A stretch of DNA of 64,000 nt from positions 5,797-69,796 of the forward strand of contig MHMT01000003.1 of NCBI GenBank assembly GCA_001819435.1. The letters run 5' to 3'. Made by a program: the position numbers and the translations under genes. Positions 23,501 through 43,378 of the stretch are shown in pieces; the stretch's first letter is position 1, and every line of letters starts with the position of its first letter. The notes under the pieces were generated by a model. That model ran no database searches. It saw nothing but the letters and a program-made list of their open reading frames with translations, and had not been told where the DNA came from. The stretch comes from Candidatus Portnoybacteria bacterium RBG_13_40_8 (GTDB taxonomy: Bacteria; Patescibacteriota; Minisyncoccia; RBG-13-40-8-A).

Positions 23501-25330
23501 TTATTTTCTAATATTATAAATCTTATAAAAATAAGATTTTTTATCTTTTAATAATTCACCTGGTATACCTTGTTCAATAATTTTACCTTTTTCTAATATT
23601 AACAACTTATCGCAATTAATTACAGTGGATAATCTATGGGCAATCGCTAAAACTGTAATTTTACCCTTAAGATTTTCGATTATTTTCTGGATTCGTATTT
23701 CTGATTCGTTATCAAGAGCGCTGGTTGCTTCATCTAATATTAGAAATTCTGGATTTCTGGCCAGAATTCTGGCTATAACGATTCTTTGTCGCTGGCCGGC
23801 CGACAAGAATATTCCTCTTTCTCCAATAATAGTAGAAAATTTCTTTGGTAGGGTTTGTATAAAATCATATATATTAGCCTTTTTTGCTGATTGTTCTATT
23901 TCTTCTTTATTAATAGTATCATCATAAAACCTAATATTATTAGTAATAGTATCATTTATCAAAAATATGTCTTGGGGAATATAACCAATATTTTTTCTCC
24001 ATTGTTTTATATCAATTTTTGAAATATTCTTTCCATTCATTAAAATTTCACCCTTACTAAGAGGGAATAGCCGTAAAATTAAATCAACAATAGTAGTTTT
24101 CCCGACCCCAGAGGGGCCGATTAAACCGACCATTTCTCCTTTTTTAATATTAAAACTTAGATTGTTTAAAATTATTGCACTTCTATTATAGGAGAAATTT
24201 ACATTTTTAAGTTCTAAATCATTATCAAACTTGAAATGACCTGAGCCCTTGATTTTTTCTCTATTTTTGTCAACCTCTTTTTCAAAGATTAATACATCCT
24301 CCAAATGGGGGACTAATTCATTTGCCGTGTGCAGTCCTTGTTGCAGATCTTGAATATATTGAAAGATTTTATAGATTAGATATGTTATTGGAATAAAGGC
24401 GGCAAAACTGAAATTCGGAGATTTATATGCGAATAAGAATACAATGCAAACAAAAATTAAACTAGTTGGTTGAAAAAAAAGGTGGGCGCAGTTTTTTAAT
24501 AAGAAAATTTTTACTTTAATTTTTTTTAGTTTGTTAAAATATTTTTTTCCAATTTCAATAATTTTATCGTTAACAAACATCGTTTTTACTGTTTTTATTC
24601 CTATAATATTTTCATTAACAAAATGAGCAACCTGCTTATTTGTGGTGGCTACTTTTTGAGCAGCTATTCTTGTTCTATACATCAGGGGTTTAAAAGAAAA
24701 GAACAGAATACTCCCCATGACAAGAGCAAATAGTGTGATACGGGATGAAATATTGATTGCTACTGTTGTATAAATTATTAGACCCGTTAATGTCATTACG
24801 GCCGCGCTAATGGTATTTAAAAGGCTCGTACTATTTGCTATATCCACTTTTAAAATAGTCTCTAAATAGCCCAATTTTTGTTTTATTAGATAGGACCAAT
24901 TAGCGTTTATGGTTTTGCTGAACAAATTATTTCTGGTTTGTTCTTCATAATTTGCGCTAATTTTAATTCTAATATAGTTGCAAAAAACTAAAGCGATGGC
25001 TTTGAAAACAAATAATAAAACAATAAAGACAAGTAAATATTTTAAACTGAAATCAATATTAAAATACAAAAAAGCTTTTTCAATGGTTTGAGATATTATA
25101 TCAGCCTCGCCAAGCCCTTCTTCTGTGGCAAGAGAAATTACGGGAATTGCAGCATTAATTCCAATGCCTTCTAATGTACCAGTTACAAATCCTAATATTA
25201 TTAAAAGGAAAATTTGTAACTTGTATCTACCAAAAGCTTGTTTTGATAATTTTGTTATTGTTGTTAATCTATTTTTTGACATAATGTCTCGCACCCCTGA
25301 AATTAATTTTTTCTTTAAAGTATAAATCAT
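23501..25330 (-). CDS. ABC transporter, fused permease-ATPase (MsbA/PglK-like exporter; candidate lipid-linked glycan flippase)
   Basis: Six-TM N-terminal half; Walker A GPSGVGKTT, signature LSAGQRQRIVIARIL, Walker B ILDEATSALD. The true start is probably internal (MSKNRL) to avoid overlap. Confidence 0.8.
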   Translation of the reverse strand: MIYTLKKKLISGVRDIMSKNRLTTITKLSKQAFGRYKLQIFLLIILGFVTGTLEGIGINAAIPVISLATEEGLGEADIISQTIEKAFLYFNIDFSLKYLLVFIVLLFVFKAIALVFCNYIRIKISANYEEQTRNNLFSKTINANWSYLIKQKLGYLETILKVDIANSTSLLNTISAAVMTLTGLIIYTTVAINISSRITLFALVMGSILFFSFKPLMYRTRIAAQKVATTNKQVAHFVNENIIGIKTVKTMFVNDKIIEIGKKYFNKLKKIKVKIFLLKNCAHLFFQPTSLIFVCIVFLFAYKSPNFSFAAFIPITYLIYKIFQYIQDLQQGLHTANELVPHLEDVLIFEKEVDKNREKIKGSGHFKFDNDLELKNVNFSYNRSAIILNNLSFNIKKGEMVGLIGPSGVGKTTIVDLILRLFPLSKGEILMNGKNISKIDIKQWRKNIGYIPQDIFLINDTITNNIRFYDDTINKEEIEQSAKKANIYDFIQTLPKKFSTIIGERGIFLSAGQRQRIVIARILARNPEFLILDEATSALDNESEIRIQKIIENLKGKITVLAIAHRLSTVINCDKLLILEKGKIIEQGIPGELLKDKKSYFYKIYNIRK

Positions 25331-26693
25331 AAAAGCTCTTTATTAATCTGTTGGCATTATTCATATCTTTTGTCGTGTGCATAAAATGATCAGTTATTAA
25401 TTCTTTATTTGCTTCGTATAATAATTTATAAAATTTTTCTTTCGGAATATCGGTGAAGTTGACGGTTAACAAATCCGAATTCTTGAACTTATTGAAGAAA
25501 TCTTCTGGTCCGGACAATAAACCTCTGTCTATTGCTTCGTAATATAGGTCGCTTCCGGGATAAGGAGTTACGGGTCTAATTGTTCTGATTTGATCGTATA
25601 AATTATATTTTTTGATTAGTTTTACATTATTCTTCAAGGATTCTTCGGTATCTCCTTTATTGCCCCAAATAAAATTTAATCCGAGTCCCACTCCCGCTTT
25701 GTTTGTGATCTCTGCGGCCATTATATTTTGTTCAACTCTAGTGTTTTTATTCATCAAATCCAACACCCTTTGGTCTGAAGATTCCATTCCAAAATTAATA
25801 AATTGACAGCCGGATTCTTTTAAGCTGTTAACGATTTCCTCGTCAAAAATATCTACCCTTGCATTACATGAAAATTTGATTTTAAGATTATTTTTTTTTA
25901 AAGCGTCCCGAAATTCAAAAATCCTCTTTTTTGAAAAAACGAATAATTCATCACCCATGAGAAAATAATTGACACCATATTTACTGTTTAAAAGCAGAAT
26001 TTCTTTTATGACATTTTTTACGCTTCGAAACCGTATTCCTTTTTCCATCCTGTAGCAAAAATTACATCTGTTAATACATCCTCTGCCAGTTAGAATGTCT
26101 AACGTTTTATCATCTTTGGTTCCCCTGAATAGTTTTAGGCAGGTAGTATATTTATCCATTGGGAATAGCGACCAGTCTGGAAAAGGAATGGAATCTAAAT
26201 CTCTGATAGGTTCTCTTCTTTCATTAATTATTATCTTTCCATTTTTACGATAAGCAATGCCTTTTACCTTAGAAAGATCCGAACCATTTATTTTACATTT
26301 TAACAAATCAACAATGGTTTCTTCTGCCTCTCCTATTGCAATAATATCTGCTTTAGTTTCTTTCAGCACATATCCGGGTATAGGAGATGGTCCGGGGCCG
26401 CCCAAAACTAACCAGGCATTTTTTTTGTATTTATTTATTGTGTTGCAGAGTCCAAGCACAGTTTCCTTGAATCTTGCCGCCAAAAAACCAACGCCAATCA
26501 AATCGTAGTCTTCATTTTTCAAAAAAAGATTAGCCAGTTCTTCATTTGAATAATGGAAAACATCTTGACAACATATCCCTACATTAAATCCTTCTTTTTT
26601 AAGCACGGCAGCCATATACGCATATCCCAGTGGTAAATAGTTGTCTTCTTGATATATGTCGTGAACAATTAATAATACCTTTCCTTCTCGCAT
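25269..26693 (-). CDS. B12-binding-domain radical SAM enzyme (candidate Fom3-like C-methyltransferase)
   Basis: GRGCINRCNFCY motif, FGMESS motif, and an N-terminal B12-like domain. Immediately adjacent to the phosphonate genes. Confidence 0.7.
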   Translation of the reverse strand: MREGKVLLIVHDIYQEDNYLPLGYAYMAAVLKKEGFNVGICCQDVFHYSNEELANLFLKNEDYDLIGVGFLAARFKETVLGLCNTINKYKKNAWLVLGGPGPSPIPGYVLKETKADIIAIGEAEETIVDLLKCKINGSDLSKVKGIAYRKNGKIIINERREPIRDLDSIPFPDWSLFPMDKYTTCLKLFRGTKDDKTLDILTGRGCINRCNFCYRMEKGIRFRSVKNVIKEILLLNSKYGVNYFLMGDELFVFSKKRIFEFRDALKKNNLKIKFSCNARVDIFDEEIVNSLKESGCQFINFGMESSDQRVLDLMNKNTRVEQNIMAAEITNKAGVGLGLNFIWGNKGDTEESLKNNVKLIKKYNLYDQIRTIRPVTPYPGSDLYYEAIDRGLLSGPEDFFNKFKNSDLLTVNFTDIPKEKFYKLLYEANKELITDHFMHTTKDMNNANRLIKSFYDLYFKEKINFRGARHYVKK

Positions 26694-26732
26694 AATTTAA
26701 TTAGATTACCGTTACTATATTAATATTGATGA

Positions 26733-27896
26733 TTAATAAATCTTTTCTAATAATTTTCTTAAAATTTTCTTTGTTACAAAACGAGGATTATTAGCCACTT
26801 TATTTGAAGTAAGGCCATGTTTAATTATTGTTTCAACATCAGTAATCCCGACCTTACTTAATGAAGTTTCTAATCCGATTGATTTCATAACGCCATTGAT
26901 TTTATTACAGGCTTCATTAACAGTATTGCAACCGAGATTTTTGACAACTTCCATAATTTTCTTTTTTACAAATTCCGGACCTCTTTTATCATTACAGTCC
27001 TTACCCGTCACGTCATAGTTGTATTTTAAAAACATTGATAAGGTTAAAGCGCAGGCATGTCCGTGAGGAATATTAAAAAAGGCAGTCATTGGATAAGAGA
27101 CAGAATGTACGGCCGTAGTAGCGGTCTGACTGAAGGCTTGACCGGTTTCAATAGTAGCTAGCATCATTTGTTCACGATAAAATAATTCTTTTGGTTTTTT
27201 GACTGCGTTTTCTAAATTATTAATAGCTAATGACATGCCTTGAGCTGCATGAATATCAGAAAATGGAGTTGAATGAATTGACCAATAAGCCTCTGTAGCT
27301 TGAGATAGAACATCCAGTCCTGTACAGGCCGTGAGGAAAGGGGGCATACTTAAAGTTAATCTCGGATCACATATGGCCGCCAAAGGAAACATCAATGGAG
27401 AACTAAGGGAGTATTTTATTTTATTTTCTCCCCAAATTGTTGCCCAAGGAGTAACTTCGCTGCCAGTTCCTGCTGTTGTGGGAATTGCTATAAAAGAAAT
27501 TCCTTTTTTATTTAATTTTCTTTTTTTTGTAAGAAAATCAATCAAGGTCCCCTTATTATTAGCAAGTATTGCTGCAGATTTTGCTGTATCTAAAACACTA
27601 CCTCCCCCTATAGCAATAATTAAATCAGTTCCGAAGTCTCTAATTAAATGTCTTACATTTTCTATTTGGGTTACATTTGGTTTTGGGGGAATTTTACTAA
27701 AAACTTTGATTTTTATTTTTGGAAAAGAGTCTTTTACCTTTTTAAATGTTTTGTCTTTCAAAACATGTTTACCTACAACTAAATAAACCCTTTCCCCTTT
27801 TGTTTCTAAAATATCGGGTAGGTATTTTAAAATTCCTGAACCAAAATATATTTTTGTGGGAAGATAATATTTATTAAATTTTTTTAATTTGAGCAC
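26733..27896 (-). CDS. iron-containing alcohol dehydrogenase (candidate phosphonoacetaldehyde reductase, FomC/PhpC-like)
   Basis: GGGSVLDTAK signature of group III Fe-ADHs. Gene context. Confidence 0.7.
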   Translation of the reverse strand: MLKLKKFNKYYLPTKIYFGSGILKYLPDILETKGERVYLVVGKHVLKDKTFKKVKDSFPKIKIKVFSKIPPKPNVTQIENVRHLIRDFGTDLIIAIGGGSVLDTAKSAAILANNKGTLIDFLTKKRKLNKKGISFIAIPTTAGTGSEVTPWATIWGENKIKYSLSSPLMFPLAAICDPRLTLSMPPFLTACTGLDVLSQATEAYWSIHSTPFSDIHAAQGMSLAINNLENAVKKPKELFYREQMMLATIETGQAFSQTATTAVHSVSYPMTAFFNIPHGHACALTLSMFLKYNYDVTGKDCNDKRGPEFVKKKIMEVVKNLGCNTVNEACNKINGVMKSIGLETSLSKVGITDVETIIKHGLTSNKVANNPRFVTKKILRKLLEKIY

Positions 27897-27906
27897 GAAC
27901 GGTTCT

Positions 27907-29034
27907 CTATTTATTTTGAAGAAATTTCATAAATGCGATTTTGTTTTCTTGGGGTGTTTTGGTCGGTCTTCCTAAATTCTTTCTTGAGCCTCTTTTTATT
28001 TTTACAATCAGCATACTAGGACATTTTTGAAATTTTATTGTTTTAACAAAATTAACTAATTCTTTTTGCGTCGTTGCAATTTTAGCGCTTTTATATCCGC
28101 AAGCTAATGCAATTCTACTGAAATCAGCAGAATTAGAAACAGTTTTTTGGCCGCCGGTTGAATCGTAAGTATTATTGTCGAAAATTATATGAAAGAGATT
28201 CTTGGGCAAGAAATGACCTATGGTAGCCAATGTGCCCATTTTCATTAAGACAGAGCCGTCGCCATCAAAAATAAAAATTTTTTTTCTGGGCTTGGTCAAG
28301 GCAATGCCCAGGGCAATACCAGCAGAACAGCCCATTGAGCCAACTACATAAAAATCAGTACGATGGTTTTGTTTTTTTATTTCTCTGCATTCAAATAATT
28401 CTCTTGAGGTTTTGCCGGTTGTAGAGATTATTGCTTCATCACCTTTTAGATTAGCAAGTATGATCTTAATGGCTTCTTCTCTTGTTAATGAATAAATGTT
28501 TTTTTCTTCTGCCTTAGATTGGCAGGATTCTATTGTTTCTTTTTTGACGATGATAGCGTAGGGTGAGCCGTTTTTTTTCAAGTATAGTTTGGCTTTTTCA
28601 ATTTCTTTTGCTGCCTTTACCTGATCTGGGGGAAGAAAGCTAAAGGGGATGCTTAAGGTTTTTAGCAATTTTAAAGTGATTCTGCCCATTTTAATGTGTT
28701 GCGGTTCGTCTTTTTTCCCTGGTTCGCCACGCCAGGAAATTAAAAGCAAAGCCGGAATACCATAAATAGCTTTATCCAATAATGAGGTTAGGGGATTGAT
28801 GGAATTTCCCAAGCCGGAATTTTGCATATAAACCATCGGAATTTTTTTGGTAGCTAAATAATAACCAGAAGCAATGGCGCACGCTTCACCTTCGCTGGTA
28901 GCAGGAACATGATTAAGTTTGCCAGTATCATTTATATAAATCAAAAAATCCTTAAATATACTGCAAGGAACTCCCGTAACGAAAGTTAAATCTTTCTTTA
29001 TTAATAAACTGATTAATTCATTGTTTTTAAGCAT
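27907..29034 (-). CDS. ppd: phosphonopyruvate decarboxylase (thiamine-diphosphate dependent)
   Basis: TPP-enzyme N-terminal and C-terminal halves with a GDGS Mg/TPP-binding motif. About 375 aa, typical for Ppd. Directly downstream of pepM. Confidence 0.75.
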   Translation of the reverse strand: MLKNNELISLLIKKDLTFVTGVPCSIFKDFLIYINDTGKLNHVPATSEGEACAIASGYYLATKKIPMVYMQNSGLGNSINPLTSLLDKAIYGIPALLLISWRGEPGKKDEPQHIKMGRITLKLLKTLSIPFSFLPPDQVKAAKEIEKAKLYLKKNGSPYAIIVKKETIESCQSKAEEKNIYSLTREEAIKIILANLKGDEAIISTTGKTSRELFECREIKKQNHRTDFYVVGSMGCSAGIALGIALTKPRKKIFIFDGDGSVLMKMGTLATIGHFLPKNLFHIIFDNNTYDSTGGQKTVSNSADFSRIALACGYKSAKIATTQKELVNFVKTIKFQKCPSMLIVKIKRGSRKNLGRPTKTPQENKIAFMKFLQNK

Positions 29035-29035
29035 A

Positions 29036-30382
29036 TTATTCTATGGTTGGAATTAGTTCTAGAATTTCTTTAATAGACAGACAAAACTTATCTGCTTCAT
29101 GGGCTCTATTGTGTTTTAATATTAATTTTGCTGTTTTTACCATAGCAGGATAAGCGCTCCTTAACAGCTGATTTGCATATATTACAATTCTGACTCCTGC
29201 TTTGATTAATTCTTTTTCCGTTATTTGGTTGTATGTTGAAGGCACAACCACAAGAGGAACTTTATATTTAAATTTCTTATATTCTTTGCAAAATTCGAGT
29301 ATTTCCTTCGGGTCTTTTTCTTTACTATGTATCATTATGCCGTCAGCCCCTGCATTTATGTAGGCTTTTGCTCGTTTAAGGGCATCTTTTAGCCCTGCTT
29401 TTAAAATCAAGCTCTCAATTCTAGCTATAATCATAAAATCATCTGTCACTTGAGCTCTTTTACCCGCAGAAATTTTATTACAAAAACCCTTTATAGTATC
29501 TTGGGCTTGTTTAACGCCTGTTCCAAAAAGAGAATTTCTTTTAGCGCCGATTTTATCTTCTATAATAACGGCGGAAACACCAAGCCTTTCAAGAGATTTA
29601 ACCGTAAACATAAAATGCTCAGGCAGTCCTCCGCTGTCTGCGTCAACAATCATTGGCTTGGTTGTTACCTCTAATATTTGTTCAATTGTTTGGATTCTGG
29701 ATGTAATGTCTACTGCGGCTATATCTGGCTTGCCTTTTGATATTGAATCAGTTAAACTGCTTTCCCACATACCATCGAATTCACGAACTTTTCCGTTTTT
29801 ATTGATCTTTGTTTTTTCAACTATGAGTCCGGTTAGTCCATTATGAACTTCCATAATTCTCACTAATGGCTTAAGCTCCAATAACCTCCTAAGCATTTTT
29901 AATCTGTAAGCAGGAGTAACCCCTACTGCAACTACAGAACTAATAAGTTGTGTTGATGATATTCCTGGAACAAATTTGCGTTCAACTAATTTACCATGCC
30001 ATTCTTTAAGCGCTTGAATAACTCTTTTTCTTGTTTCTCGTTGAATACCTGTTTTCCAATCATCTCCGTGAACAACATAATCTGGCTTGATTTTTCTCAA
30101 ATTCGGAACATAATCTAGGGTTGTCTGGGCTACTATATTCTTTACTCCTGCAATATTCTCCACTATTTTTTTTCTTTGCTCATATGTCAAAAACGGCACC
30201 CTTTTATAACTAGCTATGGCTTTATCTGTTAGTAAGCCAACCACTACATCTCCTAATTCTTTTGCTTTTATTATGGTATTTATATGCTCCGTATGAATAA
30301 GGTCAGCGCACATTCCTATATATACTATCTTTGGTTTTTTTTGTTTATGTTTCATATTACTTATTTTTTTACTTATTTTCAA
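29036..30382 (-). CDS. pepM: bifunctional cytidylyltransferase / phosphoenolpyruvate phosphomutase (Fom1-like)
   Basis: N-terminal domain: [11 protein letters not shown] is a cytidylyltransferase H-x-x-H-type motif. C-terminal domain: [16 protein letters not shown] is the PEP-mutase EDK(x5)NS signature. Confidence 0.8.
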
Positions 30383-30942
30383 AAGATTTCTTTATGAATC
30401 ATGTCCTTTAGTCTTCTTTTTGGAACATGTAAAATGCCTTTTTTATCAAGCCAGTATTTTATATCTTTTTTAAATTTATCCTCAACAGATTTCTGTTTGG
30501 GATAGCCGAGAGCTATTGCCAATTCAATCATGTAATCTTTTGGAATATTTAAATATTTGATCAACTTGTCTCTGTTTAGCGAACCAATTATACAGCTTGC
30601 TATTCCTTTCTCTAGTGCAGTTAATAATATGTTTTCTATCGCTAAACCCACATCATATTTAGCATTAGTACTTATTTTAGTGTTAGAGATTATTAAAATA
30701 TAAGCAGTGGGCCTTTCTCCTGTTTTTGGAGCTCCATTTTTCAAATAACCTGCCCAATTGGTGCATTCAAAAACTCGGTCAAGATTCTTGGTTATCAAAA
30801 TATATTCTAAGGGTTGAAGATTGGCAGAGCTTGGTGCAAGTCTGGCCGTATTTATGCATGAAAGAATGTCAGATTTTTTAATTTCTTTTTGAGAAAATTT
30901 TCTTATCGTCCTTCTTTTTAGAATTAATTTATATGTATTCAT
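30379..30942 (-). CDS. nitroreductase-family flavoprotein
   Basis: N-terminal RRTIRKF...APSSANLQP matches the nitroreductase fold signature. Confidence 0.6.
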
Positions 30943-30943
30943 T

Positions 30944-31663: not shown

Positions 31664-31690
31664 TTTATTTTTCTAATATATTTTAAGTTT

Positions 31691-32812: not shown

Positions 32813-32821
32813 ATTTTTATT

Positions 32822-34399: not shown

Positions 34400-34413
34400 A
34401 ATATCCTCATCTT

Positions 34414-35571
34414 TTAAATAGTAATTTTCTTCTGGATAATGTTATCTAATTCTATAGTAGACAATATATTAACGATTTTCTTGCTAGTATTTCCTTTTCC
34501 ATATATATATTCGGGCGGATACTTGCCATGTTGAATAGATTTTAAGATAGCTTTTTTGATTTCGGCTTTATCATAACCAACATTAATAACATTTTTTCCT
34601 CTTTCTCTTCCATTTTGTCTGGTTCCAATATTTATAGTCGGAGTACCAAAATAACAAGATTCCCGAATACCGCTGCTAGAGTTACCAACCATACAAGTAG
34701 CCTTGGCAAGTAATGAAATGTAATCTTCGAATACGATATTCTTGCCCATGGTAACATGCCCGAGTTTCTTGGCAATATCAAATAATCTTATTTCTCTGAC
34801 CATGTCTTTTGAACCAGCATCCACATTTGGGAATAGCATAATTGTTTTAATTTTTAACTCAGAAATTGCCTTGAGGGTTTCTCGGATTTGTTGCCGGCAA
34901 TATTGATATTCGGTTGTTACCGGATGTTGAACAACTATTAAAAACGGCTTATTTTTGTCTAAATTATATTTTCTATAAATTTCGCTCCTGGGTTTATTTT
35001 TCTTTGATAAAATAATATCTACAGCAGAACAGCCAACGTTAAAGACCATATCGGGTCTTTCTCCCATTTTTATTATTCTTTCAGCGCTTTTGGCTGTAGC
35101 CGGAAAATGAATATGAGCAAGTTTTGTTATCGCATGACGAATACTTTCATCTATTGAGCCAGTAGTTTCGCCTCCTTCCATATGAGCTATTGGTATATTC
35201 ATAAAAGCAGCAGATACCACCGTTCCTAAAATATCAAAACGGTCGCCTGATACAAAAACCATATCTGGTTTATATAAGCTCAAAAGCGTTGGAATTTCTA
35301 ATGCGCATAAACCAACTGACTTAGCCATTGAAATCAAATCTTCTCCCGCTGCTATGGTTCTTGCAACAGCATTTATTTTAAAGCCGTCGTCTCTTATTGC
35401 ATTGATTGTTTTGCCAAAATCATCAAGAAGATGTGATGCCGTTACAATCAATATCAATTTTAGTTTGGGATTTTTTTTGATTGCCCTCATTACGGGTTTA
35501 AGCTTGCTGTATTCAGACCGATTTCCAGTAACAACGCAAATTTTTCTTATTTTAGCTTTAGATTTTCCCAT
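34414..35571 (-). CDS. neuC: UDP-N-acetylglucosamine 2-epimerase (hydrolysing)
   Basis: HMEGGE and ITKLAHIHF motifs. Confidence 0.75.
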   Translation of the reverse strand: MGKSKAKIRKICVVTGNRSEYSKLKPVMRAIKKNPKLKLILIVTASHLLDDFGKTINAIRDDGFKINAVARTIAAGEDLISMAKSVGLCALEIPTLLSLYKPDMVFVSGDRFDILGTVVSAAFMNIPIAHMEGGETTGSIDESIRHAITKLAHIHFPATAKSAERIIKMGERPDMVFNVGCSAVDIILSKKNKPRSEIYRKYNLDKNKPFLIVVQHPVTTEYQYCRQQIRETLKAISELKIKTIMLFPNVDAGSKDMVREIRLFDIAKKLGHVTMGKNIVFEDYISLLAKATCMVGNSSSGIRESCYFGTPTINIGTRQNGRERGKNVINVGYDKAEIKKAILKSIQHGKYPPEYIYGKGNTSKKIVNILSTIELDNIIQKKITI

Positions 35572-36581
35572 TTTATTAATTGATTGGCCTTTATGCTTTT
35601 TTTGGCTCTCAGGCCAACTATTTTATTTAAATATTTTGCCGGGATGCCTGTCCCGGGGCGTTTAACCCAGACCATATTTTTCTTTATCGTCGCTCCGTTT
35701 GGTATATCAACAAGAGAGACCACGCTTTCCCGAGCCATTTTTTTAACTGGCAACTCATCCGAAGTTATTTTTTTGGTAGAGCCCAGGGCTTTTTCTACGG
35801 CCCTCACTCCTTGAACCAATTCCTTTAACTCTTTTGGCTCAATAGATGCTTTTTGGTCGGGGCCTGGCCATTTTCTGCTTATGGTAAAGTGTTTCTCTAA
35901 AACACAAGCGCCGAGAGCAATTGCTGTCAGGGCAGTATAGATGCCTATCGAATGGTCGGATAAACCAACGGGTATTTTAAGTTCTTTCTTCAGTCTTTCT
36001 ATGACTCTTAGATTCAAATCCTCATACTTTGCCGGATATGAAGATGTGCAGTGAAGAATTATAAATTTATTATTAAATCTCTTAACAAAATTGACCGTTT
36101 CCCGGACTTCCCTAAAAGTGCTCATGCCTGTTGAAATAATCATAGGTTTTCCTTTTCGGACTATATGTTCCAATAATGGAAGGTTTGTCATTTCTCCAGA
36201 CCCAACTTTATACGCCTTAACTCCTATTTTTTCTAATAAATCAGCTGCCTCTCTGCTAAATGGTGTTGATAAAAATAAAATTCCTTTCTTCTCAGCGTAT
36301 TTTTTAAGATTAATATGGTCTTTTTTAGACAGTTCAACCTTTTTAAGAAGATCGAAAAGGGAGCTTTTTACATATTCGGCAGTAAAACCATCCTTGAGCA
36401 TCTCTTTTTCTGGCAGATGGGTTTGAAATTTTATAGCGTCGGCTCCGGCTTCGGCTGCCTTTTGAATCAAAAGCATTGCTTTTTCGATATTACCATTGTG
36501 ATTTATTCCAGCTTCAGCAATGATAAAGCAGGGTTGATTTTCCCCAATTAATTTTTCCCCAATTTTAATTTTATTTATCAT
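35547..36581 (-). CDS. neuB: N-acetylneuraminate (nonulosonate) synthase
   Basis: Canonical IIAEAGINHNGN, ADAIKFQTH and GLSDHS motifs, plus a C-terminal SAF domain. Confidence 0.8.
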   Translation of the reverse strand: MINKIKIGEKLIGENQPCFIIAEAGINHNGNIEKAMLLIQKAAEAGADAIKFQTHLPEKEMLKDGFTAEYVKSSLFDLLKKVELSKKDHINLKKYAEKKGILFLSTPFSREAADLLEKIGVKAYKVGSGEMTNLPLLEHIVRKGKPMIISTGMSTFREVRETVNFVKRFNNKFIILHCTSSYPAKYEDLNLRVIERLKKELKIPVGLSDHSIGIYTALTAIALGACVLEKHFTISRKWPGPDQKASIEPKELKELVQGVRAVEKALGSTKKITSDELPVKKMARESVVSLVDIPNGATIKKNMVWVKRPGTGIPAKYLNKIVGLRAKKSIKANQLIKWENLKLK

Positions 36582-37272
36582 ATTTTTTTATTTGTTTAGT
36601 TAGCCAAAAATCAAATTCTGTATCAATTTCAAGGGAATTTTTTTCTGGCATAATATATAATCCAATTTTCCCATTTAGTATGTTGTGTTTTTTTATAAAG
36701 TTTTCATACTTTGTGATATATATTGCTCCATTTTCTTTATATTCAGGTTTTCTATCTTGTCTTCGAGCTTGTTTTCGAGTTCTTTTTTTAAAATCGTAGT
36801 TTATGCAAATCGCTGTGCTCCGATTAATTTTCCATATAAATGCATGTGAAGGACAGACGCTTAATAAGGAATCGTATTTTTCTTCTAAAAATTTATTTAT
36901 CGCTTCATCTATATGATGAGCAGCGCGAAGAGGAGAGGTGGGTTGAAGCAAAACAATAATATTTGGTTTATAATTTCCGTGTTTTTTCAAATAACTAATA
37001 ATATGTTCTAATACCGATTGCATTGGAGTAGTGTCCCCTGATAACTTTTTTGGTCTTTTTACCACCTCGGCTTTATATCTTTTTGAAATTTCCTTTATTT
37101 CTTTATCTTCCGTAGAAACAATTACTCTGTCTAATAATTTGCTTTTTAATGCCGCTTCTATGGTGTAGGCAATCAATGGTTTGTTTGTTAAAAGCCTAAT
37201 ATTTTTCTTGGGAATTCCCTTAGATCCTCCCCGAGCTGGAATTATTGCTAAAATTTTTTTATTTTTATACAT
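36571..37272 (-). CDS. neuA: CMP-nonulosonate synthetase (acylneuraminate cytidylyltransferase)
   Basis: ILAIIPARGGSKGIPKKNI motif. Confidence 0.8.
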   Translation of the reverse strand: MYKNKKILAIIPARGGSKGIPKKNIRLLTNKPLIAYTIEAALKSKLLDRVIVSTEDKEIKEISKRYKAEVVKRPKKLSGDTTPMQSVLEHIISYLKKHGNYKPNIIVLLQPTSPLRAAHHIDEAINKFLEEKYDSLLSVCPSHAFIWKINRSTAICINYDFKKRTRKQARRQDRKPEYKENGAIYITKYENFIKKHNILNGKIGLYIMPEKNSLEIDTEFDFWLTKQIKKYDK

Positions 37273-37291
37273 GATTTATTGCTTAATAAAA

Positions 37292-38257
37292 TTAATTTGA
37301 TTTATTTATTTCAACTTGATCCTTAATCCAAGAATATGTTTTAGTCAGGCCGTCACGCAGAGAAAACTGAGAAATCCAGCCCAGGGAAGAAATGCGGTCA
37401 ATGCGGAAATTTCTGGCTTTTACTCCTACGGGTCCTTCTATGTGCTTAAGGTTTATTTTCTTGCCGGAAATTTCGGCAATTGTTTTTGCTAATTCATCTA
37501 CGCTCACGTATTCCTGGCGACCGATGTTGACACCGTTTTCTATATCTGAATCCATAAGCATTCGGATTCCCTCGATCATGTCGTCGATATAAGTGTAGGC
37601 GCGCATGGCCGTGCCGTCGCCCCAAATTTCAATGGTATCATTATCCTTGGCTTCAGCAATCTTGCGGCAGAGCGCTGCAGGGGCCTTTTCCCGTCCGCCT
37701 TTCCACGTGCCCTCCGGCCCATAGCAATTCTGGAATCGAGCCAATCGGATAGTCAGACCAAAACGACGGCCATAAGCCATAGCCATACGTTCAGCATAAA
37801 GTTTTTCCCAGCCGTATTCATTATCCGGTAAGGCGGGATAGGCATTCTCTTCAGATAATTCGAGTTCATTATACTCCATATCCCTATAAACACAGGCAGA
37901 AGAAGAAAAGAAATAGCGCTTAACCCCTGCGTTAGCACTAGAATGAATCATATGGATATTTATCAAGGCGCTGTTGTGCATAATTTCGCATTCAGCCGCA
38001 TGGATGAATCCCATGCCGCCCATGTCAGCTGCTAATTGGTAAACCTCGTCAAAGCTTTCATGATTTGGTCCAAGAATAGCTGTCTGGCAGTTCTTTTCTT
38101 CTCTCAAATCCAGAATTAAGAATTCATCCGCAGCGCTCGGAGAGAATTCTGGTTTTTTTAAATCAACTCCGCGCACCCAATAACCTTCTTTTTTAAGTTG
38201 CCTTACCAGATGGCCGCCAATAAAACCTCCTGCTCCGCAGACTAAGGCTTTTTTCAT
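37292..38257 (-). CDS. NAD-dependent nucleotide-sugar epimerase/dehydratase (SDR family)
   Basis: GAGGFIGGHL Rossmann motif. GC noticeably higher (~44%) than neighbouring genes. Confidence 0.65.
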   Translation of the reverse strand: MKKALVCGAGGFIGGHLVRQLKKEGYWVRGVDLKKPEFSPSAADEFLILDLREEKNCQTAILGPNHESFDEVYQLAADMGGMGFIHAAECEIMHNSALINIHMIHSSANAGVKRYFFSSSACVYRDMEYNELELSEENAYPALPDNEYGWEKLYAERMAMAYGRRFGLTIRLARFQNCYGPEGTWKGGREKAPAALCRKIAEAKDNDTIEIWGDGTAMRAYTYIDDMIEGIRMLMDSDIENGVNIGRQEYVSVDELAKTIAEISGKKINLKHIEGPVGVKARNFRIDRISSLGWISQFSLRDGLTKTYSWIKDQVEINKSN

Positions 38258-38267
38258 AGTGATTATA

Positions 38268-38516: not shown

Positions 38517-38522
38517 ATTAGT

Positions 38523-38577
38523 TTAATTGTACGGCAGTTAAAATACTGGTGTCAATAGGTGTCAAAAGGTGTCAAGC
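38523..38577 (-). promoter_or_regulatory. sigma70-like promoter with three 10-bp-phased TTGACACC repeats (nested -35 elements / operator) for the HTH gene
   Basis: Plus strand carries GGTGTCAA at 38548, 38558 and 38568. On the minus strand: TTGACA-N18-TACAAT, then 9 nt to the ATG at 38516. Confidence 0.55.
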
Positions 38578-38629
38578 ATATTCCCGTGGATAAACAAAAA
38601 AAGAGCAATCTTGCGCTTTTTCTATTTGA

Positions 38630-40042
38630 TTATCTTCCTCCTCCGCGGAGAACAATGTTAATTGTTTTTAAAATAATACCTAAATCTAAAACAAAAGAAC
38701 GATTTTTAACATAAAAAAGGTCATACTGAAGCTTCTCAAAATTGCCTTCTATTGATGATGTGTAGCCGTGTTTAATTTGGGCCCAACCGGAAAGACCCGG
38801 TTTTATCAAGTATCTTTCCTGATAGAATGGTATTTTGGATTTAAGTTCTTGATGGAATTCCGGTCTTTCTGCTCGGGGTCCGACAAAACTCATTTTCCCT
38901 TTAATTATATCCCAAAGCTGTGGCAGTTCGTCTAGCCTGGCTTTTCTTAGAAATTTTCCGAATTTGGTTATTCTGGGGTCGTTTTTCTGGGCCATTTTCG
39001 GTCCATCTTTTTCTGCATCTATAATCATTGAACGGAATTTAAAGAGATTAAAGGGTCTTCCGCCTTGACCCACTCTGGTTTGTTTGTAAAATATCGGTCC
39101 AGGTGATTCGAATTTTATAATCAGCGCAATTATAGTCCAGAAAGGAAGTGACAAAATCAAAAATAAAAAAGCAAAGAAAAAATCAAAAATCCTTTTACTA
39201 ATTTCATAGAGATTTTTTTCTCTTTGAGATATATTTTCCAGAAACCAGACCTGATTAATGGCGGTCAAGGGAATTCGTTGGGCGACTTTTTCATAAAATT
39301 CCGAAAGATTTACAAAATCAATTTTATAACGAATACACTCGAAAAGATTTTGGATTAAATCTGGAGAATGATATATCTCTGGAGCTACTACGACCACGGC
39401 AATTTTTTCTTGTTCCAATAACTCTTTTAAGTTTTTTATTCCCTCGGTTATTTTAATTTCTGGAAAATCGGTTTTATCTATTTCCTCATGGTTTTTAATA
39501 ATTAGTTTTAACCTATATCCAAGTTGCGGATTTTTGATTATTTCTTTTGCCAATTCTATTGCCTGAAGATTATAGCCGACAATGGCAGTATTCATCCTAA
39601 GTTTTATGGATCCGGCCAAGAAATTAAACAGATGTCTCCAAGTATAAAACAGAACAATGAATACCAGAACATTTAAAAATAAATTTGTTTTAGGCGTGAT
39701 TGCGCCAAAAGCAAAATTTGGAACAAGGTAGAAGAATATTACCGAAATCAGGCCGCTAATTATCAGAGCGCGAATAAGGGCAGAGGAGAATTCTACATTA
39801 TTTTTAGCAATATCTAATTCATAAAGATTATGAATATAGAATATAATTAACCAGATAATGTAGATTATCGAAAAGGGTAAAAGATGTTTTTCAAAAATAT
39901 TAAAATCAAATGCTCGATAACGAATTGTCAAAGCAATAACCAAAGAAGCATACAAAATAAGTATGTCTCCAATTAAAAGAATGAATTTTTTGATTTTCAT
40001 TTTCTTAATTTTAATGATATTATATTTATACGTAATTGACAA
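38630..40042 (-). CDS. polyprenyl-phosphate sugar phosphotransferase (WbaP/PglC/EpsL 'bacterial sugar transferase' family), initiating enzyme
   Basis: C-terminal domain KRIFDFFFAFL...SPGPIFYKQTRVG...PFNLFKFRSM is the family signature. N-terminal TM segments. Confidence 0.8.
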   Translation of the reverse strand: MSITYKYNIIKIKKMKIKKFILLIGDILILYASLVIALTIRYRAFDFNIFEKHLLPFSIIYIIWLIIFYIHNLYELDIAKNNVEFSSALIRALIISGLISVIFFYLVPNFAFGAITPKTNLFLNVLVFIVLFYTWRHLFNFLAGSIKLRMNTAIVGYNLQAIELAKEIIKNPQLGYRLKLIIKNHEEIDKTDFPEIKITEGIKNLKELLEQEKIAVVVVAPEIYHSPDLIQNLFECIRYKIDFVNLSEFYEKVAQRIPLTAINQVWFLENISQREKNLYEISKRIFDFFFAFLFLILSLPFWTIIALIIKFESPGPIFYKQTRVGQGGRPFNLFKFRSMIIDAEKDGPKMAQKNDPRITKFGKFLRKARLDELPQLWDIIKGKMSFVGPRAERPEFHQELKSKIPFYQERYLIKPGLSGWAQIKHGYTSSIEGNFEKLQYDLFYVKNRSFVLDLGIILKTINIVLRGGGR

Positions 40043-40077
40043 GGATCTTAAAGTTAAAGTAATATTAATATATTAAT
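40040..40077. promoter_or_regulatory. divergent promoter region
   Basis: TTGACA-N18-TAATAT lies between the divergently transcribed sugar transferase and Wzy_C genes. Confidence 0.35.
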
Positions 40078-42309
40078 ATGAATCCATCTTTAACCTATGT
40101 AAAAATACTCCGCTGGGGGATTTTTATTTCCCTATTTTTGCCGTTGGTTATTTTTTCCCAATATATTTCACCATTCCATTTTGGCAAAATGGTTGTTTTT
40201 CGGGTCATTGTGGAATTTCTGGCGGTTTTTTATATTCTTTTGATTATAGTTGATAGAAATTATCGTCCTAAGTGGACTTTTCTTTTAATCGCTTTTTCGG
40301 TTTTTACGGCCCTCTATTTTTTAACTGGCGTTATCGGAGTTAATTTTTATAACAGTTGGTGGGGTTCTCTCGAAAGGATGGGTGGTATTTTCAGTTTTCT
40401 GCATTTCTGGGTTTATTTTATTATTTTGACTAGCGTAATTAAAAATATAGAAGATTGGAATAAAATTTTGAAAATATCGGTTGGAGTTGGTTTTTTGTCT
40501 ATCTTATTTGCTTATGGTCAGCGCTTAAGACTGGGAGACTTTTTTGTTGGTTGGCAGCACGGAGAAAGGGTAATTGGCACAATTGGTAATCCGGCCCTTT
40601 TTGCCGGTTATCTTCTCTTTATTCTTTATTTGGCTCTTTTATTTTTATTGAAAAAAGAAACCAAGATACAGGAAAAAGGATTTTTTACGGCAGTGATTAT
40701 TTTGGGCATCCCGGTTTTATTGATGACCGCAGTAAGAGGGGCAATACTTTCTTTTCTGGGCTCTATTTTTCTCTTGGCCATATTTTTTATTTTTACCTTG
40801 AAGAATCGGAAGATTAAAATTTCTCTATTAATTGCGGTAATTATTTTTATAATTTTGACCGTCTTTATTTTATTGAACAAAGATCAGGCCTGGGTGAGAG
40901 GCGTTAGTTGGTTAAGCAGAATAACAGACATCTCTAAAGATACTTCTACCATTCAGACCAGATTATGGTCTTGGACAAGTGCAATTAATGGATGGAAGGA
41001 AAAACCAATCTTTGGTTGGGGCCCAGAAAATTTTATGTTTCTGCATATGAAATATTTTGATGCTCGTCACTTTACTGGTCTGGGCTCGGAGACGATCTGG
41101 GATCGGGCTCATAATATATTTTTGGAAATGCTGTCTACCGAGGGCGTGGCGGGTCTTATAAGTTATTTATCTATTTTTGGTATTGCTTTTTATTTTTTGA
41201 TTAAAAAGCTAAAAACAGGAGCCATTGATGGGTTGACTTTTGGAGTTTTATCGGCAGCCCTGATTGCTTACATCGGTCAGAATCTTTTTATTTTTGATAC
41301 TTTTGCTAATTATTTCTTATTCTTTTTGGTGTTGGGATATATTAATTTTTTGCTTTTTAAAAAGGATCAGGCCGAGATTCCTGTTTCGGGGCCCGCTCAA
41401 AGTCCTTCTCTTTTTTTAATATCCATCCTTTTAATATTGGTAGCCTTTATTGTTTATCAAACAAACATAAAGCCGGCTCGAGCTAATTTTGCCTGTACCC
41501 GGGCGATTATCGCTGGTCAGGGTGGCAATGCCCAAAGGGCATACGACAAATACGTAGAGGCCCTTAATTATAATACCCCTCAAGGAGCCTATGAAATAAG
41601 ACATAAATTAGCCACTTTTGCCATTCAGGTTTCAGAATCCCAAAGACAAAAGAATGGGGATTTTAATCCAGAGCTACTTCGCTACGCAATAAAAGAAACG
41701 GAGAAAAATATAGATAAGTATCCACTTGATACAACTCCCTATCTTTATGTCGGGAGAATGCATATTCTTCTCATCAATAAGGACTCCGGGGCTGGCAATA
41801 GAGCAGAAGAATATATTAACAAAGCCATTGCTCTTAATGATAAGAATCCCAGAATCTGGTATGAATTGGGACAGGCTCAAATGTCTGAAAAGAAATACCA
41901 AGAATCGTACGAGAGCTTTAAAAAGGCGCTTGAACTCAATCCCAGTGTTTCCCTGTCTTGGTGGTTTTTGGGGGTAGTTGCCCTTCAGGTCGGACATTAC
42001 GATGAGGCGGTTTACGACGTTGAAAAGGCGATAGCAATGGGTTATTCGGATTACAAGAACAGCATCGCGGATTTAATGCGTTTGGTAAATATTTATGAAA
42101 AAGTCGGAAATATCCCGAAAGTTACAGAATATTATCTTTTGGCAATAGCCGAACAGCCGGGAAATCCTCAATTTTACGCCTCTTTAGCGGCTGCCTATGC
42201 CAAAACGGGGGATTATAATAAGGCAAAAGAAACGGCTTTAAAAGCGGTGGAAATAGATCCTAAATTTAAAGAAGAAGCAGAAAAATTTATTAATTCCTTG
42301 CCGAAATAA
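40078..42309 (+). CDS. O-antigen ligase/Wzy_C-family membrane protein fused to a C-terminal TPR domain (candidate O-oligosaccharyltransferase or polymerase)
   Basis: About 12 TM helices. WSWTSAINGWKEKPIFGWGPENF is a Wzy_C motif. The last ~190 aa carry TPR-like repeats (AYAKTGDYNKAKETALKAVEIDP). Confidence 0.7.
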   Translation: MNPSLTYVKILRWGIFISLFLPLVIFSQYISPFHFGKMVVFRVIVEFLAVFYILLIIVDRNYRPKWTFLLIAFSVFTALYFLTGVIGVNFYNSWWGSLERMGGIFSFLHFWVYFIILTSVIKNIEDWNKILKISVGVGFLSILFAYGQRLRLGDFFVGWQHGERVIGTIGNPALFAGYLLFILYLALLFLLKKETKIQEKGFFTAVIILGIPVLLMTAVRGAILSFLGSIFLLAIFFIFTLKNRKIKISLLIAVIIFIILTVFILLNKDQAWVRGVSWLSRITDISKDTSTIQTRLWSWTSAINGWKEKPIFGWGPENFMFLHMKYFDARHFTGLGSETIWDRAHNIFLEMLSTEGVAGLISYLSIFGIAFYFLIKKLKTGAIDGLTFGVLSAALIAYIGQNLFIFDTFANYFLFFLVLGYINFLLFKKDQAEIPVSGPAQSPSLFLISILLILVAFIVYQTNIKPARANFACTRAIIAGQGGNAQRAYDKYVEALNYNTPQGAYEIRHKLATFAIQVSESQRQKNGDFNPELLRYAIKETEKNIDKYPLDTTPYLYVGRMHILLINKDSGAGNRAEEYINKAIALNDKNPRIWYELGQAQMSEKKYQESYESFKKALELNPSVSLSWWFLGVVALQVGHYDEAVYDVEKAIAMGYSDYKNSIADLMRLVNIYEKVGNIPKVTEYYLLAIAEQPGNPQFYASLAAAYAKTGDYNKAKETALKAVEIDPKFKEEAEKFINSLPK

Positions 42310-43328: not shown

Positions 43329-43378
43329 AAGAAATAGAATTATTTGACAATAAATTTAAAAGGGTTTATTAGATAGTT

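Follow-up and report, generated by a model that had tools for sequence, protein, structure and literature searches.

In Paenibacillus alvei, the S-layer O-oligosaccharyltransferase (O-OTase) WsfB combines a Wzy_C domain with C-terminal TPRs, and its slg locus encodes a WbaP-like initiating transferase, a TagF-like enzyme, an AsnB homologue and an ABC transporter (PMC2943079). For WsaB/WsaA of Geobacillus stearothermophilus the TPR part is a separate, adjacent protein, and TPR domains also work as polysaccharide-export scaffolds (PMC2943079). PglL and PglS have a large domain outside the membrane and TfpM lacks one (PMC9829042). The lipoteichoic acid ligase TacL of Streptococcus pneumoniae transfers a polyprenyl-linked, teichoic-acid-type polymer, which is synthesized in the cytoplasm before its export through the membrane (PMC5727136). 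The locus presented here encodes a Wzy_C protein with C-terminal TPRs (Wzy_C-TPR) and lies in a 64-kb stretch of DNA, all of which was analysed (hereafter the window).

The glycan locus and its host

The host is a tiny groundwater bacterium from the Candidate Phyla Radiation (CPR), Parcubacteria (Candidatus Portnoybacteria); a 100% protein match to Candidatus Portnoybacteria supports this. A preliminary description of the window had suspected a CPR organism, correctly, and had considered a wall-less one; however, FtsQ and a D-Ala-D-Ala dipeptidase are encoded in the window, so the host is not wall-less. We treated it as monoderm when comparing systems. In one Parcubacterium, lpxC and kdsA were reported missing and type IV pilins present, and its many glycosyltransferases were taken to hint at glycoproteins or a glycosylated S-layer (PMC5220378). 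The missing lpxC and kdsA make a classical WaaL role unlikely for the Wzy_C-TPR protein, in line with the earlier argument that an O-antigen ligase is less plausible in a host without LPS. The window ORF annotation gave no core-oligosaccharide genes in the Wzy_C-TPR neighbourhood.

The features of the locus were the following (window coordinates, strand):
339..13371, no single strand: another portion of this glycan island, with three GT4, four B12-rSAM, an AsnB homologue and two methyltransferases
13336..23488, minus: cytoplasmic elongation/modification genes (Pfam, NCBIfam matches), with GT4, TagF-like glycerophosphotransferase, a 515-aa unknown, methyltransferase, 2-hydroxyacid dehydrogenase, nonulosonate set 2 (CMP-transferase, NeuC, NeuB) and a KpsS/KpsC-like Capsule_synth protein
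23501..25330, minus: fused TMD-NBD ABC exporter (type IV, ABCB-like), with ABC_membrane and ABC_tran
25269..38257, minus: precursor genes, with two B12-rSAMs, a phosphonate branch (Fe-ADH, phosphonopyruvate-decarboxylase-like TPP enzyme (Ppd), cytidylyltransferase-PEP mutase fusion), nonulosonate set 1 (NeuC, NeuB, PseF-like CMP-transferase), SDR epimerase, nitroreductase, a short NeuB-like protein and WbuX amidotransferase
38630..40042, minus: large polyprenyl-phosphate glycosylphosphotransferase, with four N-terminal TM helices and a C-terminal catalytic domain
40078..41472, plus: Wzy_C-TPR membrane domain (aa 1-465), with 13 TM helices and a WaaL-like fold
40876..41115, plus: putative catalytic loop, large and extracytoplasmic (aa 267-346), with R295 and the W341-D-R-A-H345-N346 motif
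41473..42309, plus: C-terminal TPR domain (aa 466-743), all-helical, predicted extramembrane, a putative acceptor- or partner-binding module
42318..44953, plus: short NDP-sugar dehydrogenase and TviC-like SDR epimerase fused to GNAT, co-transcribed after Wzy_C-TPR
46147..47955, plus: secreted 602-aa protein with a signal-like N-terminus and a HEFQH (HExxH) motif, between Wzy_C-TPR and SecA
62286..63965, minus: PMT_2/PMT-family GT-C glycosyltransferase (PMT_2 50.4 bits, PMT 41.7 bits, both above cut-offs)

The preliminary description had joined four of these genes (23501-25330, 38630-40042, 40078-42309 and 62286-63965) into one assembly line, and each was recovered as an ORF with exactly these coordinates. 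An initiating phosphoglycosyl transferase together with an ABC-type flippase and no Wzx stood up to analysis; the link to the PMT-like gene did not. The initiating polyprenyl-P sugar transferase had matches to Bac_transf (225.8 bits, Pfam) and to the polyprenyl glycosylphosphotransferase family TIGR03025 (383 bits, cut-off 295.6). Its gene and the Wzy_C-TPR gene are divergently transcribed, and its translation probably begins at the ATG at 40001 rather than at the TTG at 40042.

The ABC half-transporter, called PglK/MsbA-type before, has the expected domains and aligned end-to-end with PglK 5c73 (over 40-587, 213 bits). Its best NCBIfam matches were HepA (339 bits), MsbA (300) and PglK (239), all below the equivalog cut-offs (725 for HepA, 1000 for PglK). 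No Polysacc_synt or MATE (Wzx) domains were found with Pfam in 52 window ORFs, i.e., almost all non-overlapping ORFs of 100 aa or more, and tblastn with two CPR Wzx proteins as queries gave no match in the window. Among related islands, 6 class-A loci had a fused ABC exporter, 12 others had Wzx, and none had both. This interchange suggests that the ABC protein is probably a flippase/exporter for an Und-PP-linked glycan.

The exotic payload proposed earlier is reflected in the gene content: two NeuC/NeuB/CMP-transferase sets, PEP mutase (402 bits, cut-off 320) with Ppd and Fe-ADH, WbuX and six B12-radical-SAM genes. The glycan island extends past the window start.

The Wzy_C-TPR protein and its conserved neighbours

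Both parts of the Wzy_C-TPR protein were recovered with Pfam, the Wzy_C domain at aa 206-364 (67.1 bits, cut-off 31.7) and the TPRs at aa ~575-740 (TPR_1/2/8 and related matches). R295 and the W341-D-R-A-H345-N346 motif were invariant in 44 homologues, and R220 lies in the outside turn preceding the large loop. In alignments, the counterparts of H345 were H349 in PglL of Neisseria (9rmk) and, in WaaL 7tpg, the His of the AHN motif. The loop was the best-conserved region (71% mean identity), with 52–71% for the membrane domain. The TPR domain had a mean identity of 59%, on par with the membrane domain, which implies a conserved partner. Invariant in it were Y505, D551, R560, N587, P591, E596, G598, Q599, F614 and W629, and it was retained in 82 of 84 related loci. 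About 14 helices in the AF2 secondary structure correspond to about seven repeats. The odd number of TM helices puts the TPR domain outside the membrane, in a predicted extracytoplasmic position on the side of the catalytic loop.

The Wzy_C-TPR family is widespread in Parcubacteria, with 3,401 clusters (50% identity) at E<=1e-30. Its members are 36–87% identical, while the adjoining glycan genes differ completely between loci; the island gene content was different in each locus examined in detail. Of 54 informative loci, 36 had a Bac_transf homologue (40–81% identity) no more than 3 kb from the Wzy_C-TPR gene, and in 31 the distance was at most 1 kb. This recurrence indicates that the pairing in the window is not a chance co-occurrence. 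Typically, Bac_transf and Wzy_C-TPR are at the island edge, followed by the secreted HExxH protein and SecA. The HExxH protein is a conserved neighbour, with homologues in 34 of the 36 class-A loci. Homologues of the 42318..44953 genes were found in many class-A loci (UGDHs 35–74% identity, SDR 40–62%), making these genes candidates for the synthesis of a conserved reducing-end sugar, potentially of the uronic-acid type. Secreted proteins with S/T/A/P-rich linkers adjoin a paralogue of the Wzy_C-TPR gene.

Proposed pathway and alternative readings

Our best explanation for the locus as a whole, with a probability of about 0.5, is that a polyprenyl-diphosphate-linked glycan is passed to a terminal en-bloc transferase, the acceptor being most likely a protein. 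The Bac_transf enzyme would load the first sugar-phosphate onto the lipid. The GT4, TagF-like and KpsS-like cytoplasmic enzymes would then lengthen the chain by adding nonulosonic acids, glycerol-phosphate and residues that are methylated or bear phosphonate, and the ABC half-transporter, standing in for Wzx, would carry the lipid-linked product across the membrane. There, the WaaL-fold Wzy_C enzyme could move the glycan off the lipid and onto an acceptor via R220, R295 and H345, with the acceptor held by the outward-facing TPR domain. If this acceptor is, as seems most likely, a Sec-exported surface protein, the enzyme would be an O-OTase of the PglL/WsfB kind. The analysis shows the gene identities, the fold, the conserved residues, a predicted topology, the recurrent pairing with the initiating transferase and the exchange of ABC exporter and Wzx; from these we infer the sequence of steps, the role of the flippase, the en-bloc transfer and the protein acceptor.

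The Wzy_C-TPR protein is probably a terminal ligase/OTase, as indicated by the WaaL fold, the invariant Arg/Arg/His and the alignment of H345 with PglL H349. The recurrent pairing with the initiating transferase fits an enzyme recognizing the lipid-PP-proximal sugar and tolerating variable glycans. That it is instead a Wzy-type polymerase, joining lipid-linked repeat units outside the membrane with the TPR domain as built-in chain-length regulator or scaffold, appears improbable to us. Wzy_C is common to polymerases and ligases, the protein had a weak match to the repeat-unit polymerase family TIGR04370 (E 0.004), and in a fully covered Wzx-type island (L085+L004) two Wzy_C-TPR paralogues were the only polytopic polymerase candidates found. 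However, a periplasmic polymerase is not expected in the window island, which carries an ABC exporter and no Wzx. Wzy polymerases follow the repeat-unit structure and are highly variable, whereas this family stays conserved beside unrelated glycan gene sets. The partner conserved with this family is the initiating transferase, neither Wzx nor Wzz, and another Wzx-type locus (L003) has beside Wzx a separate 9-TM unknown that could be the polymerase. Participation of the PMT-like enzyme as a fourth component is even less credible. The protein is a genuine PMT/PMT_2-family GT-C, and PMT_2 genes were found 3–5 kb from class-B Wzy_C-TPR paralogues in 6 of 18 loci. Yet in the window 20 kb separate it from the Wzy_C-TPR gene, with SecA, SecDF, AspRS, SerRS and FtsQ in between, and none of the 36 class-A loci had a PMT homologue within 10 kb. 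GT-C enzymes of the PMT type use polyprenyl-P-monosaccharide donors, a route different from en-bloc Und-PP-glycan transfer.

With respect to the acceptor, we give a protein roughly even odds, based on the PglL-like 13th TM helix, which is predicted to put a 280-aa domain outside the membrane, and on the Wzy_C and TPR precedent of Paenibacillus WsfB. The TPR extension had been considered suited to protein-substrate recognition; its predicted outward orientation and WsfB agree with this, but since TPR domains also act as export scaffolds, a TPR domain alone is no proof of it. The LPS genes reported missing in one Parcubacterium and WsfB favor the proposed O-OTase over an O-antigen ligase, while the family profile went the other way, with 42.7 bits for WaaL and a lower score of 31.1 bits for PglL. 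PglL_A and Wzy_C_2, which we take to be the PglL domains, were not detected in the protein with Pfam. Neither S-layer or pilin genes nor a pilin-like motif were found in the 64-kb window.

The same pathway with a non-protein acceptor is a possible but less likely reading. A TacL-/WaaL-like ligase would then move a teichoic-acid-/capsule-like polymer from the polyprenyl carrier to a membrane glycolipid, conceivably to the cell wall, and the TPR domain would dock the enzyme to other envelope machinery instead of a protein substrate. TacL is a monoderm O-antigen-ligase-like enzyme acting on a glycolipid (PMC5727136). The TagF-like and KpsS/C-like enzymes suggest a polymer of this kind, usually lipid- or peptidoglycan-attached in monoderms, for which the many GT4 enzymes are also expected, and the top family match of the exporter, HepA, is a polysaccharide exporter. 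WaaL is the closest solved relative by profile and fold, PglL 9rmk being outside the fold libraries compared. No LCP-family ligase was found in the window or in four annotated loci, so any wall polymer would need another anchoring enzyme. On the other side, conservation of the TPR domain is strong and includes invariant residues. WaaL (7tpj, 403 modelled residues) lacks a large external domain, and neither such a domain nor a TPR domain is known in TacL. Genes for glycolipid-anchor synthesis were not seen near the Wzy_C-TPR gene. Fatty-acid synthesis was reported missing in the studied Parcubacterium, making a dedicated endogenous glycolipid anchor less obvious (PMC5220378).

Comparison with described systems

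As in the PglK/Wzk/HepA-type flippases, the window exporter is a homodimeric fused TMD-NBD protein inside a lipid-linked glycan locus without Wzx; it aligns end-to-end with PglK and changes places with Wzx from one related island to another. In contrast to the equivalogs, it scores far below every cut-off, and its substrate is putative. The Wzy_C-TPR protein shares with WaaL of Cupriavidus metallidurans (7tpg/7tpj) the Arg/His-containing periplasmic loop, to which it adds a 13th TM helix and the external TPR domain; the lipid A-core acceptor of WaaL is not expected in Parcubacteria (PMC5220378). TacL is, by description, similar as an O-antigen-ligase-like enzyme in a monoderm, differing from the favored protein acceptor in using a glycolipid (PMC5727136).

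The general O-oligosaccharyltransferase PglL of Neisseria (9rmk) has in common with the Wzy_C-TPR protein the Wzy_C domain, the aligned essential His, and a large extracytoplasmic C-terminal domain that comes after a 13th TM helix (PMC9829042); tolerance of diverse glycans is expected in both. Sequence similarity is only 28–31 bits, limited to aa 161-378, and is not detectable between the C-terminal domains. The host here is a monoderm, and the flippase is of the ABC type, unlike the Wzx-type PglF. By description, the WsfB/slg locus resembles the window in its monoderm host, in a terminal enzyme with Wzy_C and C-terminal TPRs, and in the Bac_transf initiating transferase, TagF-like glycerophosphotransferase, AsnB homologue and ABC-dependent export. 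It differs in that the window has no S-layer structural gene identified nearby, uses a fused PglK/MsbA-type half-transporter in place of Wzm/Wzt, has a payload rich in nonulosonate and phosphonate genes, and carries its Wzy_C-TPR gene within a block, including SecA, that is conserved across Parcubacteria.

Glycan genes and export functions of the window

The window had a G + C content of ~35% and was almost entirely coding. Its glycan island begins before the window start and ends at ~45 kb. The chain-building genes recognized were four GT4 genes, a TagF-like glycerophosphotransferase and a KpsS/C-like protein. Two sets of NeuC, NeuB and CMP-transferase genes were present for nonulosonates, together with a WbuX amidotransferase, an AsnB homologue and methyltransferases. 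Two further groups of genes were found in the island:

2174-3595, 7388-8908, 9269-10651, 10661-12106, 25269-26693 and 32822-34399, six B12-binding radical-SAM enzymes
26733-30382, phosphonate branch with a cytidylyltransferase-PEP mutase fusion (402 bits, cut-off 320; cytidylyltransferase N-terminal), a TPP-dependent decarboxylase and an Fe-ADH

Six B12-binding radical-SAM enzymes are unusually many for one island, and suggest that sugars or phosphonates undergo several C-methylations or other radical-based changes. The phosphonate branch points to a hydroxyethylphosphonate-type, nucleotide-activated decoration. At gene level, the two Neu sets, the PEP mutase branch and the six radical-SAM enzymes bear out the payload given in the preliminary description (nonulosonate, phosphonate and radical-SAM-modified).

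Within the nonulosonate/phosphonate block, a truncated NeuB-like protein (239 aa, C-terminal two-thirds of NeuB only) lay beside a nitroreductase-family protein (30379-31663). A 515-aa protein (15773-17320), between the TagF-like gene and a methyltransferase, had no Pfam or NCBIfam match. No family match was found for a 259-aa protein (44998-45777), the N-terminal motifs of which are GT-A-like by eye (VWNE...DDG). The stretch after SecDF (54007-57988) encodes a sigma-70 region 4 / HARE-HTH protein, a membrane protein of 428 aa and an ATPase that resembles TrwB/VirD4 and has a treble-clef zinc finger. This gene order is the same in the related locus L004 and forms a conserved block. The membrane protein had no Pfam match in the window; its positional counterpart in L004 carries the annotation DUF8128. 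Neither a tRNA gene nor a match to an Rfam family was present in the whole 64 kb.

Four genes had been combined in the preliminary description into a candidate protein O-glycosylation system, and all four were located:

23501-25330 (-), ABC exporter, a fused ABC_membrane + ABC_tran half-transporter (Pfam)
38630-40042 (-), initiating transferase, a large Bac_transf phosphoglycosyl transferase (Pfam 225.8 bits; TIGR03025 383 bits, cut-off 295.6)
40078-42309 (+), Wzy_C-TPR protein of 743 aa, with Wzy_C PF04932 at aa 206-364 (67.1-68.2 bits, cut-off 31.7) and TPR repeats at ~aa 575-740 (Pfam)
62286-63965 (-), PMT-like GT-C gene, PMT PF02366 41.7 bits (cut-off 22.7) and PMT_2 PF13231 50.4 bits (cut-off 26.1)

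The listed start of the initiating transferase is a TTG (40042), 35 bp from the ATG of the Wzy_C-TPR gene. With the alternative ATG at 40001, the protein would have 456 aa and the spacer 76 bp, matching the relatives. A promoter-like TTGACA-18-TAATAT (40036-40065) lay just upstream of the Wzy_C-TPR start.

The ABC exporter did not reach the PglK equivalog NF050066 (239 bits, cut-off 1000), and was also below the NCBIfam cut-offs for HepA (339 vs 725) and MsbA (300 vs 602). Judged by architecture and locus position, it does fit a PglK-type flippase of lipid-linked oligosaccharides. We confirmed the absence of Wzx from the window: none of 52 ORFs, nearly all non-overlapping ORFs of at least 100 aa, matched Wzx/MATE by Pfam, and tblastn with two CPR Wzx proteins gave nothing. 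The same Pfam scan of the 52 ORFs detected no Wzz, LCP ligase or LPS-core enzyme.

Fold and conserved residues of the Wzy_C-TPR protein

Membership of the protein in the Wzy_C superfamily (WaaL, PglL, Wzy, TacL) is established, and membership in the PglL, WaaL, Wzy or TacL subgroup is not. The AlphaFold2 model, built on 44 homologues (pLDDT 87, pTM 0.83), had 13 TM helices followed by ~14 helices at aa 485-740. The polytopic fold was WaaL-like, with a large outward loop after TM9. Lysine and arginine numbered 10 in 44 inside loop residues vs 3 in 54 outside, following the positive-inside rule with an N-in topology. These loop charges place the 80-residue loop (aa 267-346) and the entire C-terminal TPR domain, by prediction, outside the membrane. 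An extra C-terminal TM helix with a large extracytoplasmic domain (aa 466-743), a PglL-type trait, was predicted.

R220, R295 and W341-D-R-A-H345-N346 were invariant among the 44 homologues of the family. In alignments, H345 corresponded to H349 of chain 9rmk_A, the deposited name of which is “Oligosaccharyltransferase”, and to the AHN-motif His of WaaL 7tpg. From its H349 register we take 9rmk_A to be Neisseria PglL; a literature search for a PglL structure paper gave nothing specific. R220, R295 and H345 form a conserved outward-loop His and Arg set and are putative activity residues. H345 corresponds to the His reported to be necessary in Wzy_C ligases and OTases (PMC9829042).

Foldseek matches of the full-length model against the PDB were dominated by TPR proteins. 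With the membrane domain modelled alone, the sole match was WaaL (TM 0.57/0.64), then FtsW weakly, PglL 9rmk being absent from both fold libraries. Against PDB sequences, PglL scored 28.4 bits and WaaL 24.8 in a single-sequence search, and the family profile gave the opposite ranking (WaaL 42.7 bits, PglL 31.1), all low scores. Sequence scores rank neither PglL nor WaaL as the nearer relative. Scanned with Pfam at E ≤ 10, aa 1-468 gave Wzy_C alone, without PglL_A PF15864 and Wzy_C_2 PF11846, presumably the PglL-specific domains. NCBIfam had no specific model for the protein, its matches being TPR look-alikes only.

The family and its genomic neighbourhood

The Wzy_C-TPR protein matched, at 100% identity, a hypothetical protein from a Candidatus Portnoybacteria bacterium, a member of the Parcubacteria group of Patescibacteria. 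A profile of its membrane domain recovered 3,401 clusters (50% identity) at E ≤ 1e-30. Among the best 150 clusters, 135 had a length of at least 650 aa, which shows that the C-terminal extension is included. Species-representative genomes yielded 80 loci, every one of them from Patescibacteria/Parcubacteria, and the TPR domain was found in 82 of the 84 loci examined. This domain was conserved like the membrane part (59% mean identity; catalytic loop 71%). Database labels for the relatives read “O-antigen ligase / TPR”.

We sorted the 54 loci with at least 3 kb on each side by their context. In class A (36 loci, the window included), a Bac_transf gene lay no more than 3 kb away, and in 31 of these loci no more than 1 kb. 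Class B (18 loci) had no initiating transferase nearby, and in 6/18 a PMT_2 GT-C gene was near. The glycan genes beside the conserved pair of Bac_transf and Wzy_C-TPR were wholly different from locus to locus, as in these examples of variable genes:

L001: NeuB, aminotransferase, formyltransferase
L003: GT2, deacetylase, formyltransferase
L004: GT2 genes, methyltransferases

Beside such unrelated gene sets, the Wzy_C-TPR family keeps 36-87% identity. The flippase type is interchanged as well: six class-A loci had an ABC homologue, 12 had Wzx and none had both. In a sample of this size, the mutual exclusivity is no more than suggestive (hypergeometric estimate ~0.07, flanks limited to 10 kb).

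Downstream in class A, SecA was found in 30/36 loci, and a homologue of a 602-aa secreted HExxH protein (46147-47955 in the window) in 34/36, lying between Wzy_C-TPR and SecA. The C-terminal ~130-aa module of the HExxH protein had no Pfam match. The same module occurred at 44-55% identity in other secreted proteins near 10 of the 18 class-B paralogues (e.g., L025 4248-4613 and 6759-7181). We considered it as a candidate acceptor or partner and discarded it, as its distance in these 10 loci is variable and it has no background rate, making it unusable as evidence.

The PMT-like gene, in contrast to its inclusion in the preliminary description, we leave out of the system. It lies 20 kb off, behind SecA, SecDF, AspRS, SerRS and FtsQ, and no class-A locus (0/36) had a PMT homologue within 10 kb. 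The PMT and PMT_2 Pfam models also take in ArnT-like GT83 enzymes, so a match to them implies no protein acceptor. At the class-B locus L025 (77-1696, 3654-4901, 5015-6688, 6705-8678) there were a TMTC_DUF1736 + TPR GT-C and a PMT_2 GT-C, as well as secreted SH3_3 or PG_binding_1 proteins bearing long T/P- or S/A/P-rich linkers. As a group they resemble a cluster of candidate enzymes and targets of glycoprotein formation. PMT_2, TMTC-like GT-C-TPR and S/T/A/P-linker proteins at class-B loci are a lead for protein glycosylation in Parcubacteria, and not evidence on the window locus. A comparison of the TPR domains of the Wzy_C-TPR protein and the TMTC-like GT-C of the paralogue locus gave no sign of a shared recognition module, their similarity being generic only (27%, E 0.001).

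Two Wzy_C-TPR paralogues (L085 10001-12256 and L004 10001-12226, contig ERZ27249619 k141_311647) flank one ~32-kb glycan island with Wzx. Genes for an ECF sigma factor, a DUF5667 protein and a secreted protein of 1173 aa precede the upstream paralogue.

Proposed role, acceptor and comparison with known systems

The initiating transferase would start a polyprenyl-PP-linked glycan, which cytoplasmic enzymes would complete and the ABC half-transporter would flip. The Wzy_C enzyme would then move the glycan en bloc onto an acceptor that its TPR domain binds. We consider a terminal ligase or OTase a better fit for the Wzy_C-TPR protein than a polymerase, with a probability of roughly 0.8, because the window island is of the ABC type, because the family stays conserved beside unrelated glycan gene sets, and because its constant partner sets the reducing-end sugar, the part that ligases and OTases recognize. 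A polymerase is improbable. Such an enzyme would be expected with a Wzx in the same locus, where the window has the ABC exporter instead, although 12 relative loci do have Wzx-type islands. The sequence of Wzy repeat-unit polymerases is expected to vary with the structure of the repeat unit, a variation at odds with the identity kept in this family. Some weight for a polymerase comes from the complete island bracketed by the paralogues of L085 and L004, which is of the Wzx type and in which no further polytopic candidate polymerase was found.

Protein O-glycosylation, the central claim, is inferred, and we give a protein acceptor about even odds. Such an acceptor is favored by the PglL-like 13th helix and external domain, by the strongly conserved TPR surface, by the precedent of Paenibacillus alvei WsfB and by the reported lack of LPS in the group. 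Knoot et al. suggested that the external domain recognizes sequons (PMC9829042). A lipid or wall acceptor is less probable. Several points speak against a protein: no acceptor gene was identified and the nearest match is WaaL, the island holds polymer-type enzymes (TagF-like, KpsS-like), TPR domains also serve as polysaccharide-export scaffolds, and TacL is a monoderm precedent for a lipid acceptor (PMC5727136). The window encodes FtsQ and a D-Ala-D-Ala dipeptidase, indicating that the cell has a wall. For one Parcubacterium, lpxC and kdsA were reported missing and type IV pilins present, and the envelope of CPR/Patescibacteria has been described as “unclear” (PMC5220378). The 64-kb window had no LPS, core or heptosyltransferase genes, the WaaL-type context which the preliminary description had set against an O-OTase. 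By Pfam it had no S-layer-domain protein either, and the target could be encoded elsewhere; the pilin-type signal motif [GAS][FMY][TS][LIV][LIVM]E had no match in its six frames.

Tentatively, and with somewhat less confidence than for the protein acceptor itself, the Parcubacteria may share one conserved “start and finish” pair, in which a phosphoglycosyl transferase is joined by a Wzy_C O-oligosaccharyltransferase with TPR, at a constant place beside the Sec genes. Glycan cassettes between and alongside the two would be exchanged as a whole, and so would even the type of flippase. This could be a phylum-wide general protein O-glycosylation system, providing these very small, host-dependent cells with a hypervariable coat of glycoproteins, and its paralogues could act on other surface-protein targets. 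CPR cells live attached to or dependent on hosts, and therefore surface glycans likely govern attachment, phage sensitivity and immune-like recognition. The Wzy_C-TPR family, the place of which on the chromosome is constant and adjoins a hypervariable glycan island, is the probable last step of surface-glycan display in Parcubacteria. One gene, three residues (R220, R295, H345) and a TPR domain to serve as acceptor bait offer a handle by which the question of the CPR envelope becomes approachable by experiment. The payload genes predict unusual glycan chemistry, and if the acceptor is a protein, the enzyme would be a glycan-tolerant O-OTase of a new lineage, possibly useful in glycoengineering.

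Among known systems, WaaL has the same fold as the Wzy_C-TPR membrane domain, but its gene context was absent from the window. PglL-type general O-glycosylation and the slg-type S-layer glycosylation loci of Paenibacillus and Geobacillus are similar in their working, the latter being likened to the window from published descriptions. In PglL and PglS, the C-terminal domain is large and periplasmic (PMC9829042). As in slg clusters, one locus combines a WbaP-like initiating transferase with ABC-dependent export and a Wzy_C transferase, whereas the exporter is a fused type IV ABC in the window and Wzm/Wzt in slg loci. WsfB of P. alvei, with Wzy_C and TPR, joins the S-layer glycan to SpaA tyrosines. 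Encoded in the same locus are a WbaP-like initiating transferase and an ABC transporter, as well as a TagF-like enzyme and an AsnB homologue (PMC2943079). Our literature search on Patescibacteria O-antigen ligases and CPR protein glycosylation gave nothing specific, and no paper on the comparative picture. The domain combination and the locus logic are already known from Firmicutes. The novelty lies in the comparison across loci, in which a very large family of Parcubacteria keeps its place beside the Sec genes and, with its initiating transferase, borders a hypervariable glycan island.
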